Assembly: GCF_030013205.1 (NCBI RefSeq)
Contig: NZ_CP122648.1
DNA from: Escherichia coli
GTDB lineage: Bacteria > Pseudomonadota > Gammaproteobacteria > Enterobacterales > Enterobacteriaceae
DNA: 64,000 bases
Strand: one strand, 5' to 3'
In this document: piece after piece, positions 25,890 through 28,442 of the stretch
Layout: each line of letters starts with the position of its first letter
Numbering within the stretch: position 1 is the first letter of the stretch
Notes under the pieces: generated by a model
The model's input: only the letters and a program-made list of their open reading frames with translations
The model's database searches: none
What the model was told of the DNA's origin: nothing
Made by a program: the position numbers and the translations under genes

Positions 25890-26108
25890 TTACCATTCCT
25901 CGCGCAGCTTACGCTGGTATTCGACACCATCTTCCTCACTCCCTTGCCAGATGCCAAAAGCACTGGCTCTTGCTGTTTGCGATTGATTTACCAGGTATTG
26001 ATCTACCGCTTCCCGTAATAGCTCCGCACGAGGAAGATTATGCTGCACCTCGAGATCATCAAGTTGCTTAAACAACTCATTCGATAAATTGAGTAAAATT
26101 CTGCCCAT
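25890..26108 (-). CDS. yiiF: Ribbon-helix-helix (CopG-like) protein YiiF (72 aa)
   Basis: [39 protein letters not shown]... has the RHH fold signature; paralog of the neighbouring yiiE. Confidence 0.75.
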
Positions 26109-26226
26109 ATCTATACCTGCCAGAGAGTTCATAAATATCTCGCCCATATCATTTTTGAATCTATGGAGAGAAGAGTACCCTTGTCGAATCTTTAAAGAAA
26201 GCGTATTTACGCATCACTTTTTATTT

Positions 26227-26269
26227 TTGCGAGGCGTTTTCCAGATATGATGTAACAGTTGCAGTTATT
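26227..26269. promoter_or_regulatory. Conserved upstream module of yiiF (ttgcgaggcgttttccagat ... tgtaacagttgcagttatt); putative promoter/operator
   Basis: Near-identical module recurs upstream of yiiE (26666..26708), and its first 20 bp recur upstream of the toxin gene (28349..28368), each about 120 bp from the start codon. Confidence 0.45.
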
Positions 26270-26350
26270 ATAAGTTCAAGTAAAACAGCCTTGTATTAAT
26301 ACCAGAATAAGGGCATCTGTTTTTTTATATTCAAGAATGAAAAATTTTTG

Positions 26351-26569
26351 TCATTCCTTATGCTCCTTACACTGATCATCAACACCAACTACCTCCCCCT
26401 TTTGCCTGCCTCCCTTTGCTTTACGCACCGGGAATTGCTGACGTTCCAGATATTGCTCTACCGCTTCGCGTAAAATTGCAGATCGTGAAACCTTACGCCA
26501 GCCCCTAAGCTTGTTCAGCCGTTTAATTGCCTCTTCTGATAAATGAAGAAAAACCGTATTCATCGCCAT
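26351..26569 (-). CDS. yiiE: Ribbon-helix-helix (CopG-like) protein YiiE (72 aa)
   Basis: MAMNTVFLHLSEEAIKRLNKLRGWRKVSRSAILREAVEQYL...; same architecture and same upstream sequence module as yiiF. Confidence 0.75.
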   Translation of the reverse strand: MAMNTVFLHLSEEAIKRLNKLRGWRKVSRSAILREAVEQYLERQQFPVRKAKGGRQKGEVVGVDDQCKEHKE

Positions 26570-26987
26570 TACCACCACCTTACATATATTACTCATTAAT
26601 GTATGTGCGAAAATTACGCCGAAAAATCATTTAAAAAAAGCGGATTTTTGCATGTCGTTTTGTTTTTGCGAGACGGCATCCAAAGATAATGTAACAGTTG
26701 CAGTTATTTCAATTGTTACTCAAAAATGGTTTAGTAATAACCCAGGATGGTTTATTACTTTTAATTAAGCGGGGACACATCTACAGAAAAGAAACAACAA
26801 ATAATAAGGATGAATTATGGGTGCTATAAATATTTTATATTCAAGAATATTTTTTTGATTGGGTGTTCATTTGCTTCATCAGGATGGTGTACCCGAAAAA
26901 GTCAGCAGCTTTACCGCACCAGGGTTTAAGGTGAAATCTACCATTCATAACTGACCGGTCAGTGCCGCACCAACCGGTCTTTAATTG

Positions 26988-27266
26988 TTAGTAGTAGTAA
27001 ATTTGTGGATAACAGTCCGGGAACCAGACGATTCCTTCTGGATCATCCCCCTGCATTACCCGATGACATTGGCGTCGATCATCTGCGCGACGGCGAAGCG
27101 TAGTATAGAGCCGCTTCCATTCATGATCGCCCGGTGTACTGTAGTTTACCCAACAATCCATTGAAGGGTGACGCCATTTACCTGTAAGTGTTGGGATCCC
27201 TGAATGATTATGTGGCTTCGCTTTACCATTACGATCCCTATCTTTACGCGTATTAAGCGTGGACAT
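26988..27266 (-). CDS. Hypothetical small protein (92 aa), basic and Cys/His-containing, function unknown
   Basis: ATG at 27266 preceded by AGGAG with 7-nt spacing; co-oriented with the toxin-antitoxin pair; I recognise no family. Confidence 0.45.
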   Translation of the reverse strand: MSTLNTRKDRDRNGKAKPHNHSGIPTLTGKWRHPSMDCWVNYSTPGDHEWKRLYTTLRRRADDRRQCHRVMQGDDPEGIVWFPDCYPQIYYY

Positions 27267-27317
27267 TTTTAGTCTCCTGTTAAGAGTTCTAAAAATGTGC
27301 TTCCTTAAAATAGTTCA

Positions 27318-27539
27318 TCATTTTCCCTTAATTCGCATAGCGTGCTTTTGCACGAATTTCCGATACGCGGGGACCATTATGATAGCGTCGATGCCCACAC
27401 ATCCAACAAGAACAAATACAGGGAGTACGAAAGCAAATACCTGATGCTTTTTTGCTTCCATCGCCTGCAGTGCGATAACGGCAGCGGATTTTTTTAATCG
27501 CGCCATATGATGGCGACGTTCAGCACGATTACGGGTCAT
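27318..27539 (-). CDS. Hypothetical small membrane protein (73 aa), function unknown
   Basis: ATG at 27539 preceded by AGGAG (7 nt), with that Shine-Dalgarno lying inside the imperfect hairpin of repeat copy 1; basic N-terminus then one hydrophobic helix VFAFVLPVFVLVGCVGIDAIIMV. Confidence 0.4.
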   Translation of the reverse strand: MTRNRAERRHHMARLKKSAAVIALQAMEAKKHQVFAFVLPVFVLVGCVGIDAIIMVPAYRKFVQKHAMRIKGK

Positions 27540-27544
27540 AGTAA

Positions 27545-27642
27545 AACTCCTGAGCAGGCGGCACTATGCCGCTTTCATAGGAGTTCTGAATGCTGGTGCT
27601 TTCTGTATGGCATAACCATGCCTCTAACGGTTAAGTGCCTGC
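27545..27642. repeat. Direct repeat copy 1 (~98 bp): imperfect hairpin plus the 3' end of the antitoxin gene
   Basis: About 87% identical to 29362..29459 by eye alignment; the first 67 bp differ at only 4 positions. Confidence 0.7.
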
Positions 27643-27914
27643 AGCACATGTTGCGGATCATTGGCAATCGCTCGCAGCAAAGCCTTTGCAGGCCCAGTCG
27701 GTGAACGTCGCCCCTGCTCCCAGTTACGCAACGTGTCTACGCTTACGGAAATAAGTTCGGCAAATTTAGATTGTGACAACCCTGAAGCGCGGCGTATTTC
27801 TTTGATTTTCATAGCATCAACTTCAAAAGTCCGTGAAGGGTGTCGCGTTCCTTCAATAATTTCATTCATCTGGGCCATGCTGTGAGTCAACCGCTCAAAA
27901 AGTGCCTTATCCAT
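27624..27914 (-). CDS. HTH (XRE-type) antitoxin, HigA-2-like (96 aa)
   Basis: Helix-turn-helix ...IKEIRRASGLSQSKFAELISVSVDTLRNWEQGRRSP...; start codon directly abuts the upstream toxin stop (TGG-TAA-ATG). Confidence 0.75.
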   Translation of the reverse strand: MDKALFERLTHSMAQMNEIIEGTRHPSRTFEVDAMKIKEIRRASGLSQSKFAELISVSVDTLRNWEQGRRSPTGPAKALLRAIANDPQHVLQALNR

Positions 27915-28226
27915 TTACCACCTCGTATTTAACAACCGGAGCATTGCTTTTTCCTGGGGAGACAGATCATCTTTAATACCCTTACGATAAATAAGCAGTA
28001 ATCTGATCTCATAATGTTTAACCTGATGAAAGTAAATAACCCTGACACCAGCACGTTTCCCCTTTCCTCCTGACACCCATCGAACCTTTCTTAACCCACC
28101 AGTTTCAGGTATTACCTCACCATAGTCAGGATTCAAGGCCAGGAAAAACTGAAAACGACTGAATTCATCGTCGGTCAGCAGTTTTTGAACATCTTCAGTA
28201 AAAATTTCCGTTTCGATGAAGAGCAT
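27915..28226 (-). CDS. RelE/ParE-superfamily toxin, HigB-2-like (103 aa)
   Basis: MLFIETEIFTEDVQKLLTDDEFSRFQFFLALNPDYGEVIPETGGLRKVRWVSGGKGKRAGVRVIYF... closely resembles HigB-2-type toxins as I recall them (GGLRK...GKGKR.G.R.IY core); toxin-first gene order as in higBA. Confidence 0.75.
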   Translation of the reverse strand: MLFIETEIFTEDVQKLLTDDEFSRFQFFLALNPDYGEVIPETGGLRKVRWVSGGKGKRAGVRVIYFHQVKHYEIRLLLIYRKGIKDDLSPQEKAMLRLLNTRW

Positions 28227-28263
28227 AATTATACGCCATTGGCTTAGAGTAACAATCCTTTTT

Positions 28264-28280
28264 GTACGTCATTGACGTAC
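28264..28280. promoter_or_regulatory. Perfect 17-bp palindrome GTACGTCA-T-TGACGTAC upstream of the toxin gene; candidate antitoxin operator
   Basis: Seen directly in the sequence, 38 bp upstream of the toxin ATG; a TATAAT hexamer lies immediately 5' of that ATG. Confidence 0.5.
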
Positions 28281-28442
28281 CCTTGAAACCACTAGCTTAC
28301 TGATAGTGCTCCAGCAAAACCACGTCTCTGCCGGGTTTGTCTTTACATTTGCGAGGCGCTTTCCAGATTTTTCACGCCCGTGAATTTCCCTGTATCCATC
28401 CAGCAAAAACGGGTGTATAAAACTGTACATTCATACAGCAAA

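Follow-up and report, generated by a model that had tools for sequence, protein, structure and literature searches.

This analysis concerns a set of short repeated elements in the variable fdhE-fabY (yiiD) interval of Escherichia coli, as represented in a 64-kb stretch of contig NZ_CP122648.1 that is called the window here. All coordinates are those of the window, and positions 25700–29600 were 100% identical to E. coli ETEC1748. A 20-mer, TTGCGAGGCGTTTTCCAGAT, lies upstream of yiiF and recurs in the spacer between a toxin-antitoxin operon and a divergent esterase gene. Judged from its sequence, the best explanation overall is that this 20-mer is a CRP-S site, a non-canonical asymmetric site for the cyclic AMP (cAMP) receptor protein CRP that is used with Sxy, and we consider this reading probable. 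On this reading the element belongs to a class of regulatory site already described; its re-annotation is useful, and the kind of element itself is not new. An original prediction, made from the letters of the window, had described it as the first part of a near-identical module that precedes each of two paralogous ribbon-helix-helix (RHH) genes, yiiF and yiiE, with the 20 bp alone returning at the same distance upstream of the toxin-antitoxin operon. The CRP-S-type sites of the region are the following.

26225 to 26246: M1, a CRP-S-type 22-mer with the core TGCGA-GGCGTT-TTCCA at 26228 to 26243
26664 to 26685: M2, a degenerate CRP-S-type site 5' of yiiE, with TGCGA-GACGGC-ATCCA at 26667 to 26682
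28347 to 28368: M3, a CRP-S-type site with the core TGCGA-GGCGCT-TTCCA at 28350 to 28365, between the divergent toxin-antitoxin operon and esterase gene

The repeats are real and non-random. The 20-mer at 26227–26246 has a 19/20 copy at 28349–28368, and 0.02 matches with three or fewer mismatches are expected by chance in the window; M1 and M3 are also the sole exact matches to TGCGA-N6-TTCCA in it. The copy upstream of yiiE (TTGCGAGACGGCATCCAAAG) is identical at 14 of the 20 positions, so the predicted near-identity of the two upstream modules does not hold for this part; what the two regions do share is a 79-nt homologous block (26191–26269 and 26630–26708, 81% identity), and the paralogy of the two genes was borne out by their proteins (38% identity, E = 9e-11). 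Measured from the start of TGCGA to the ATG, the distance is 96 nt for yiiF, 98 nt for yiiE, 124 nt for the toxin gene, and 105 nt for the divergent esterase gene. The third copy is thus present as predicted, but its distance from the toxin gene is not the same. Upstream of yiiE, K-12 has a perfect TGCGAGGCGTTTTCCAG core, and the core in O157 is one base off. The repeated module consists of two parts that differ in nature, this 20-mer and a 19-mer that is taken up below.

The E. coli CRP-S motif has been given as 5'-TGCGA-N6-TTCCA-3' (Søndberg et al. 2019, PMC6728893, citing Sinha et al. 2009). It is non-palindromic, orientation-independent, and Class I-like, and activation from it needs cAMP-CRP plus Sxy, also called TfoX (PMC6728893). 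M1 and M3 fit this motif exactly, and M2 is one base off. CRP-S sites of E. coli have C at position 6 of one half and a weaker second half. The core of the 20-mer, TGCGA-GGCG(C/T)T-TTCCA, extends to the consensus ATTTTGCGAGGCGCTTTCCAGAAT, which has partial dyad symmetry of the CRP type (TGnGA-N6-TnnCA). The identity extends to validated sites in MG1655: the sxy promoter site, TTTGCGAGGCTCTTTCCGAA, agrees with M3 at 18 of 20 positions; the ppdD site, TGCGA-GGCGTT-ACGAA, has the spacer of M1, and TTTGCGAGGCGTT is common to both. In the same strain sbmC has TGCGA-GCAGAC-TCGCA beside a LexA box. Among six alleles of the yiiE and yiiF upstream regions, the half-site TTTTTGCGAG and TCCA were invariant and the 6-nt spacer was variable, a pattern of divergence that would fit CRP-type constraint. 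In the yiiF-vapC operons of four other genera (including Citrobacter, Salmonella, and Pseudocitrobacter) the site stands in register, 94–100 nt before the antitoxin ATG. A literature search by sequence string did not find the motif string in papers.

The distribution of the 20-mer was examined by a BLAST search of M3 against 5,426 complete E. coli genomes, in which it occurred at a median of 3 and at up to 5 places per genome. The additional places included the yhcG-gltD and coaBC-radC spacers, with the same 17-mer 5' of yhcG and of radC; a further occurrence was in a relBE cassette between cybC and nrdG. The CRP-S regulon classically includes radC, which explains the copy in the coaBC-radC spacer. 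An exact-pattern scan for the 17-mer TGCGAGGCGYTTTCCAG in one genome per species (298 Gb) found at least 120 loci, by our own estimate against about 70 exact chance matches in that amount of sequence; the matches in unrelated phyla look like chance, in G+C-rich DNA. Among the matches listed, Enterobacteriaceae were strongly enriched and had the motif in some two dozen different intergenic settings, in Escherichia, Citrobacter, Enterobacter, Lelliottia, Leclercia, Silvania, Phytobacter, Pluralibacter, Siccibacter, and Superficieibacter. Genes of type II or type I toxin-antitoxin systems (RHH+PIN, Gp49/HTH_37, CcdA/CcdB, RelB/ParE, RelE/NadS, and SymE) were very frequent among the neighbours, and at least six toxin-antitoxin families adjoin exact copies across the family; neighbours of other kinds were radC, yhcG, yjbD, and an SOS-box gene with clpA and infA on either side. 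The 20-mer was found in either orientation relative to the adjacent gene. Several toxin-antitoxin systems induced by Sxy or carrying a CRP-S site were already known: chpSB, higBA, hokD, hicAB P1, and toxTA of Haemophilus influenzae. The site would plausibly be functional for yiiF, yiiE, and their neighbours.

Two observations on other loci may be recorded here. In Enterobacter and Lelliottia the clpA-infA spacer holds a family of 145–171-aa proteins with no Pfam match, whose promoter contains the exact CRP-S 17-mer, a spacer of about 22 nt, and the LexA-box-like TTGCTGGATAAAnnCACAGTAATAAAATG; the family is a candidate target of joint Sxy and SOS control. The regions upstream of K-12 higB and hicA, two toxin-antitoxin promoters that respond to Sxy, have TTCTGGAATC...TTCC in common and are without TGCGA-N6-TTCCA; this TTCTGGAATC-type sequence may be a second flavour of CRP-S site.

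The genes that follow M1 and M2 were examined for their family membership and for toxin partners. The features concerned are these.

25751 to 25888, minus strand: remnants of a vapC (PIN toxin) pseudogene 3' of yiiF, found by tblastn
25890 to 26132, minus strand: yiiF, encoding an RHH protein; predicted orphan VapB-type antitoxin gene
26351 to 26569, minus strand: yiiE, encoding an RHH_1 protein; predicted orphan VapB-type antitoxin gene, Escherichia-restricted

Both YiiE and YiiF matched ribbon-helix-helix families (RHH_1 and RHH_3). Citrobacter, Pseudocitrobacter, Salmonella diarizonae, and a Serratia-labelled contig carry homologs about 70% identical to YiiF. All those examined are at the same fdhE-fabY locus and have an overlapping 122–124-aa PIN-domain (VapC) gene directly after them, and Superficieibacter likewise has a YiiF-type gene and then a PIN gene. 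YiiE homologs are confined to Escherichia and Shigella. The one in E. albertii (69% identity) has a YiiE-type RHH N-terminus and a YiiF-type C-terminus and is followed by a 124-aa PIN gene, the product of which is 77% identical to the PIN protein of C. freundii. With these two PIN proteins as queries, tblastn located residues 2–29 at 25888–25805 and residues 102–123 at 25801–25751 of the window. The C-terminus of YiiF is conserved with those of PIN-partnered antitoxins, and that of YiiE is not. The intact PIN gene that would mark a VapBC system is present at the orthologous loci of other genera; beside yiiF and yiiE in the window there are fragments only. Because of these vapC remnants and the PIN partners in other genera, we take yiiF and yiiE to be orphan VapB-type antitoxin genes, not a complete system, and the earlier suggestion that they are orphan antitoxin-type genes is upheld. 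In the literature the two genes appear as list entries, namely as transcription factors of unknown function and as 2.5-fold up with SlyA overexpression, and there is a sigma-S peak in the yiiD-yiiE spacer from SELEX (systematic evolution of ligands by exponential enrichment).

The surroundings of the third copy, M3, are made up as follows.

27624 to 27914, minus strand: NadS/helix-turn-helix (HTH) antitoxin gene
27915 to 28226, minus strand: RelE-like toxin gene, first in the toxin-antitoxin operon, with a weak Pfam match to RelE (PF06296)
28264 to 28280: perfect palindrome GTACGTCA-T-TGACGTAC, read from the sequence, a candidate operator for the antitoxin
28416 to 28421, plus strand: -10-like TATAAA of the predicted esterase promoter, read from the sequence
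28421 to 28440, plus strand: putative LexA/SOS box AACTGTACATTCATACAGCA of the same promoter, read from the sequence
28455 to 29363, plus strand: Abhydrolase_3 esterase (alpha/beta hydrolase) gene, divergent from the toxin-antitoxin operon

The sequence AACTGTACATTCATACAGCA agrees with CTGT-N8-ACAG, comes directly after TATAAA, and overlaps the predicted esterase start. A LexA box (CTG(T/G)-N8-ACAG) is kept in the orthologous esterase promoters of five other genera. Across six genera (E. coli, C. freundii, Pseudocitrobacter, S. diarizonae, Superficieibacter, and the Serratia-labelled contig) the spacing from the site to the TATAA(A/C) hexamer and LexA box is constant within one base, and the intervening sequence has diverged. 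With the usual spacing from -10 to start, the centre of M3 would be at about -70.5 from the predicted esterase start, which is a Class I position (Class I-like positions are about -61.5, -71.5, -82.5, and -92.5 relative to the transcription start). Because of the constant spacing to the esterase promoter, M3 would be the conserved site of the esterase and at least as much the esterase's as the toxin operon's. Sxy/CRP and SOS control appear to act jointly on this accessory esterase, which is absent from K-12.

The toxin-antitoxin operon has the palindrome at 28264–28280, 38–54 nt 5' of the toxin ATG, as well as a promoter-like sequence near that ATG. A distal Sxy-dependent and a proximal autoregulated toxin promoter would together resemble hicAB. 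Siccibacter has the site 127 nt upstream of the same toxin-antitoxin pair, and there no esterase gene is adjacent. The RelE-like gene is named RelE/ParE family toxin by RefSeq in some strains.

The 19-mer TGTAACAGTTGCAGTTATT and a more distal 16-mer, TTTTATATTCAAGAAT, complete the set of repeats.

26251 to 26269: 19-mer, copy 5' of yiiF, candidate operator
26690 to 26708: 19-mer, copy 5' of yiiE, exact in the window and diverged in K-12 and O157
26323 to 26338: 16-mer, distal upstream element of the yiiF cassette
26833 to 26848: 16-mer, distal upstream element of the yiiE cassette

The 19-mer occurs exactly twice, with 0.01 occurrences expected by chance in the window. The claim that this second part of the module is identical at both genes is true of the window, but in K-12 and O157 the yiiE-side copy reads AAGAG(T/C)GTTGCAGTTGTT. 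The 19-mer and the CRP-S 22-mer are 4 nt apart, with the 19-mer on the far side from the antitoxin gene. It is locus-specific, with 1–2 places per genome in 5397 of the 5426 E. coli genomes, and was not found at the non-Escherichia loci examined. Its core is a pseudo-palindrome, TGTAAC-A-GTTGCA(GTTATT), which is mirrored in E. albertii (TGCAAC-A-GTTACA); a mirrored pseudo-palindrome is the pattern that would be expected of a site for a dimeric protein. That a YiiE-type RHH domain may bind the 19-mer is a reasonable guess and not a result. A rightward promoter using the TTGCAG within the 19-mer was considered and rejected, as its CRP-S spacing (about -57.5) and its target were unconvincing. The predicted recurrence of TATATTCAAGAAT at 26326 and 26836 was exact at both positions, and these matches extend to the 16-mer, which is conserved in both cassettes.

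Several points weigh against the CRP-S assignment. The right half-site of the yiiE copy in the window is changed to ATCCA, and this copy may be inactive. Neither yiiF nor yiiE nor the toxin operon was found to have a convincing sigma-70 promoter at a Class I distance, and in the promoter scan, on which the assignments do not rest, promoter-like matches in the region were no commoner than in shuffled sequences. The centre of M3 would be near -136 relative to the proximal promoter-like site of the toxin operon. Finally, the 6-nt spacer is exact across many unrelated contexts, which is more than CRP contacts alone require; this excess is partly a matter of ascertainment, as the collection scan demanded an exact 17-mer.

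These points have to be set beside what other explanations can account for. According to the original prediction, the 20-mer and 19-mer form a private promoter/operator module that was produced by tandem duplication of an RHH cassette and also drives the toxin-antitoxin operon. The 81% identity of the 79-nt upstream block, the paralogy of the proteins, and the restriction of the 19-mer to this locus all agree with such a history, as does the alternation of the toxin-antitoxin pair and vapB genes at the locus in other genera. The 20-mer itself does not: it equals a published regulon motif and is found at unrelated loci, with its median of three places per genome, and its copies at radC and yhcG already refute the module as an exclusive explanation. 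Like the copies in the relBE cassette between cybC and nrdG and at many other places, they would belong to a regulon-wide CRP-S site and not to the cassette-specific promoter module that had been proposed. The toxin-antitoxin copy, moreover, has no 19-mer beside it, stands 28 nt more distant from its gene, and has been conserved together with the divergent esterase promoter. We regard the private module as quite unlikely. Of the idea that the operon occupies a slot equivalent to a yiiE/yiiF cassette, the common upstream element remains, but the 124-nt distance and the co-conservation with the esterase promoter across genera speak against equivalence; likewise, the predicted array of similarly promoted antitoxin-type cassettes does consist of antitoxin-type cassettes with a common upstream element, but Sxy/CRP-S co-regulation would replace the private module. 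The prediction had also reckoned with a widespread generic element, such as a terminator or a repetitive extragenic palindromic (REP) variant. In the genome-wide search the motif was indeed widespread, but as a probable transcription-factor site. REP, terminator, and structured RNA were rejected: the element has no hairpin, and there were no Rfam matches in 24000–32500.

Another possibility is that the 17–22-bp element is an att-like recombination site or cassette junction, at which small toxin-antitoxin cassettes would be gained, swapped, or lost, and the locus an integron-like toxin-antitoxin array. Citrobacter sp. Cu233 is without exactly the 1610 bp that separate the two copies of C. youngae, the two alignments sharing 21 nt at the motif. 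The inserted toxin-antitoxin block has a copy on either side in Pseudocitrobacter and in the window, each with one ancestral flank, and the yiiF deletion of uropathogenic E. coli (UPEC) ends at M1. Deletion or fusion between nearby short direct repeats would suffice for all of these cases, and a dedicated site is unneeded. The empty cybC-nrdG site is without the motif, and the occupied site has it about 100 nt inside the cassette; the coaBC-radC copy was uninterrupted in 5424 of 5424 E. coli genomes. There was no recombinase gene nearby in the window or the neighbour annotations examined, and other indels of the locus end at other repeats and at 26270. A recombination site therefore seems improbable to us. 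A sigma-54 promoter, read on the gene-sense strand as TGG-N9-TCGCA, would have a fitting GG-N10-GC spacing, and the yiiE copy keeps GG and GC; the element nevertheless departs from TGGCAC and TTGCA and stands in both orientations relative to neighbour genes. Genome-wide sigma-54 chromatin immunoprecipitation sequencing (ChIP-seq) of K-12 lists no site at yiiF, yiiE, or yhcG, and the site near dfp differs in sequence. This explanation can be virtually dismissed. Insertion sequence (IS) or transposon ends, dif/Xer sites, invertase hix-type sites, and a LacI-type operator were also considered; none seemed to fit, and they were dropped after the exact CRP-S match.

If the 20-mer is a CRP-S site, a history of the locus can be proposed from its layouts in other genera. 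C. freundii and the Serratia-labelled contig have a single site, TGCGA-GCCGCT-TTCCA, in a 198–205-nt spacer between the esterase gene and yiiF-vapC, 94–100 nt from the antitoxin ATG. Where the RelE-like/NadS pair lies between esterase and antitoxin genes, as it does in Pseudocitrobacter, E. albertii, and the window, there are two copies of the site, of which the esterase-side copy keeps the esterase flank and the antitoxin-side copy keeps the antitoxin flank. The ancestral layout would have been one CRP-S site between a vapB-vapC operon and a divergent, LexA-repressed esterase gene. In Escherichia the vapC toxin gene would have decayed, and the antitoxin gene would have come to be present as a tandem pair of paralogs (yiiF and yiiE), both of which retained their upstream region and, about 96–98 nt before the ATG, the site; the RelE-like/NadS pair and two small open reading frames (ORFs) would have come between copies. 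Such insertions and paralogs would account for the present three copies. With Sxy and cAMP-CRP active, yiiF, the esterase gene, and possibly the toxin-antitoxin pair would be co-induced, together with yiiE in strains with an intact site. The esterase would additionally be gated by the SOS response, and the 19-mer may be bound by a YiiE-type RHH domain that modulates the neighbouring CRP-S site. We also considered, as a speculation that is unlikely to be correct, that near-identical CRP-S sites are a portable "adapter" of many small toxin-antitoxin cassettes in Enterobacteriaceae, and that the 17–22 bp shared by the copies are at the same time a joint for fusion, duplication, and deletion of neighbouring cassettes; if it were true, arrays like yiiF/yiiE/relE-nadS/esterase would have been assembled and remodelled through a transcription-factor site.

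Genome comparisons showed that the fdhE-fabY locus is mosaic among E. coli strains. K-12 is without 27024–31281, O157 is without the toxin-antitoxin pair and the esterase gene, and B2 strains (UPEC_U013, for example) have no yiiF. In Ec55 an insertion of 1.9 kb with a DUF6708 gene and a hypothetical gene lies immediately 3' of 26270, next to the 19-mer, and some strains, for example E. coli 99_0849, have a copy of IS621 (IS110 family) between fdhE and yiiF (about 25854–25881). The two small ORFs are these.

26988 to 27266, minus strand: ORF of 92 aa, no family match in Pfam or NCBIfam
27318 to 27539, minus strand: ORF of 73 aa, no family match in Pfam or NCBIfam

Their order and size are kept in E. 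albertii and in another Escherichia contig, where they are flanked by an antitoxin gene and a vapB-type gene. A 98-nt direct repeat (27545–27642 and 29362–29459, 88% identity) opens with a hairpin of about 19 bp that is perfect in the second copy (AACTCCTGTGAAAGCGGCA...TGCCGCTTTCACAGGAGTT). Its copies bracket the block antitoxin-toxin-M3-esterase; in O157 exactly this block is missing and a single hybrid repeat is left. The repeat is locus-specific in E. coli (1–3 places per genome), and a related element sits after the antitoxin gene in Pseudocitrobacter. Further on, a 617-aa ORF (29532–31385, minus strand) had no family match. In the ETEC1748 record this region is annotated as "transposase" plus a pseudogene, and the transposase label looks unsupported; K-12 retains an N-terminal fragment only, and many strains are without 29368–31761. 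On the other side of the locus, inside fdoI and 5' of fdhE, 24300–24316 (plus strand) is an exact copy of the intragenic sigma-54 site IS47, CTGGCGCGAATTCTGCA (Bonocora et al. 2015).

What is new here is the predicted assignment of these genes and sites to the CRP-S regulon, the reading of yiiE and yiiF as orphan vapB genes, and the apparent control of the esterase gene by CRP-S and LexA. YiiE and YiiF, still listed as K-12 transcription factors of unknown function, would gain an identity, as orphan VapB-type antitoxins whose PIN toxin has decayed, together with a predicted regulator (cAMP-CRP with Sxy) and a candidate operator (the 19-mer). Sinha and colleagues are said to have listed 34 CRP-S transcription units in 2009. 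The link between the Sxy regulon and toxin-antitoxin systems would be extended, beyond the few K-12 cases known, to at least six families from many genera of enterobacteria. Conserved targets outside competence are useful material for the question of what the E. coli Sxy regulon does in nature.

Among known systems, the sites of sxy and ppdD have the same asymmetric TGCGA-N6-TTCCA architecture and the same intergenic upstream position; their genes serve DNA uptake, whereas the predicted sites here precede orphan antitoxin genes, a toxin-antitoxin pair, and an esterase gene. A CRP-S site 5' of a type II toxin-antitoxin module is also found at E. coli hicAB P1 and H. influenzae toxTA, and in hicAB it belongs to a distal promoter apart from the autoregulated proximal one. 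The K-12 hicA and higB upstream sequences are, however, of the TTCTGGAATC type and not TGCGA, and two of the three genes here are toxin-less. For the esterase the closest parallel is sbmC, where a CRP-S site 5' of a promoter overlapped by a LexA box gives the dual Sxy/CRP and SOS control that is predicted here; sbmC differs in its palindromic TGCGA-N6-TCGCA, and the esterase is unrelated, accessory, and absent from K-12. The vapBC systems share the overlap of a YiiF/YiiE-type RHH gene with a 122–124-aa PIN gene, as seen in Citrobacter, Salmonella, Pseudocitrobacter, Superficieibacter, and E. albertii, but E. coli keeps toxin-gene fragments only, and the presumed toxin-binding C-terminus of YiiE has been replaced. 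Integron cassettes and the pdif modules of Acinetobacter resemble the locus in that direct repeats of about 20 bp separate small accessory modules, including toxin-antitoxin pairs, and in one indel bounded exactly by two copies of the motif. They differ in that the present locus has neither an integrase nor an Xer-type architecture, and in that its motif is missing at the empty site and never interrupted at radC.

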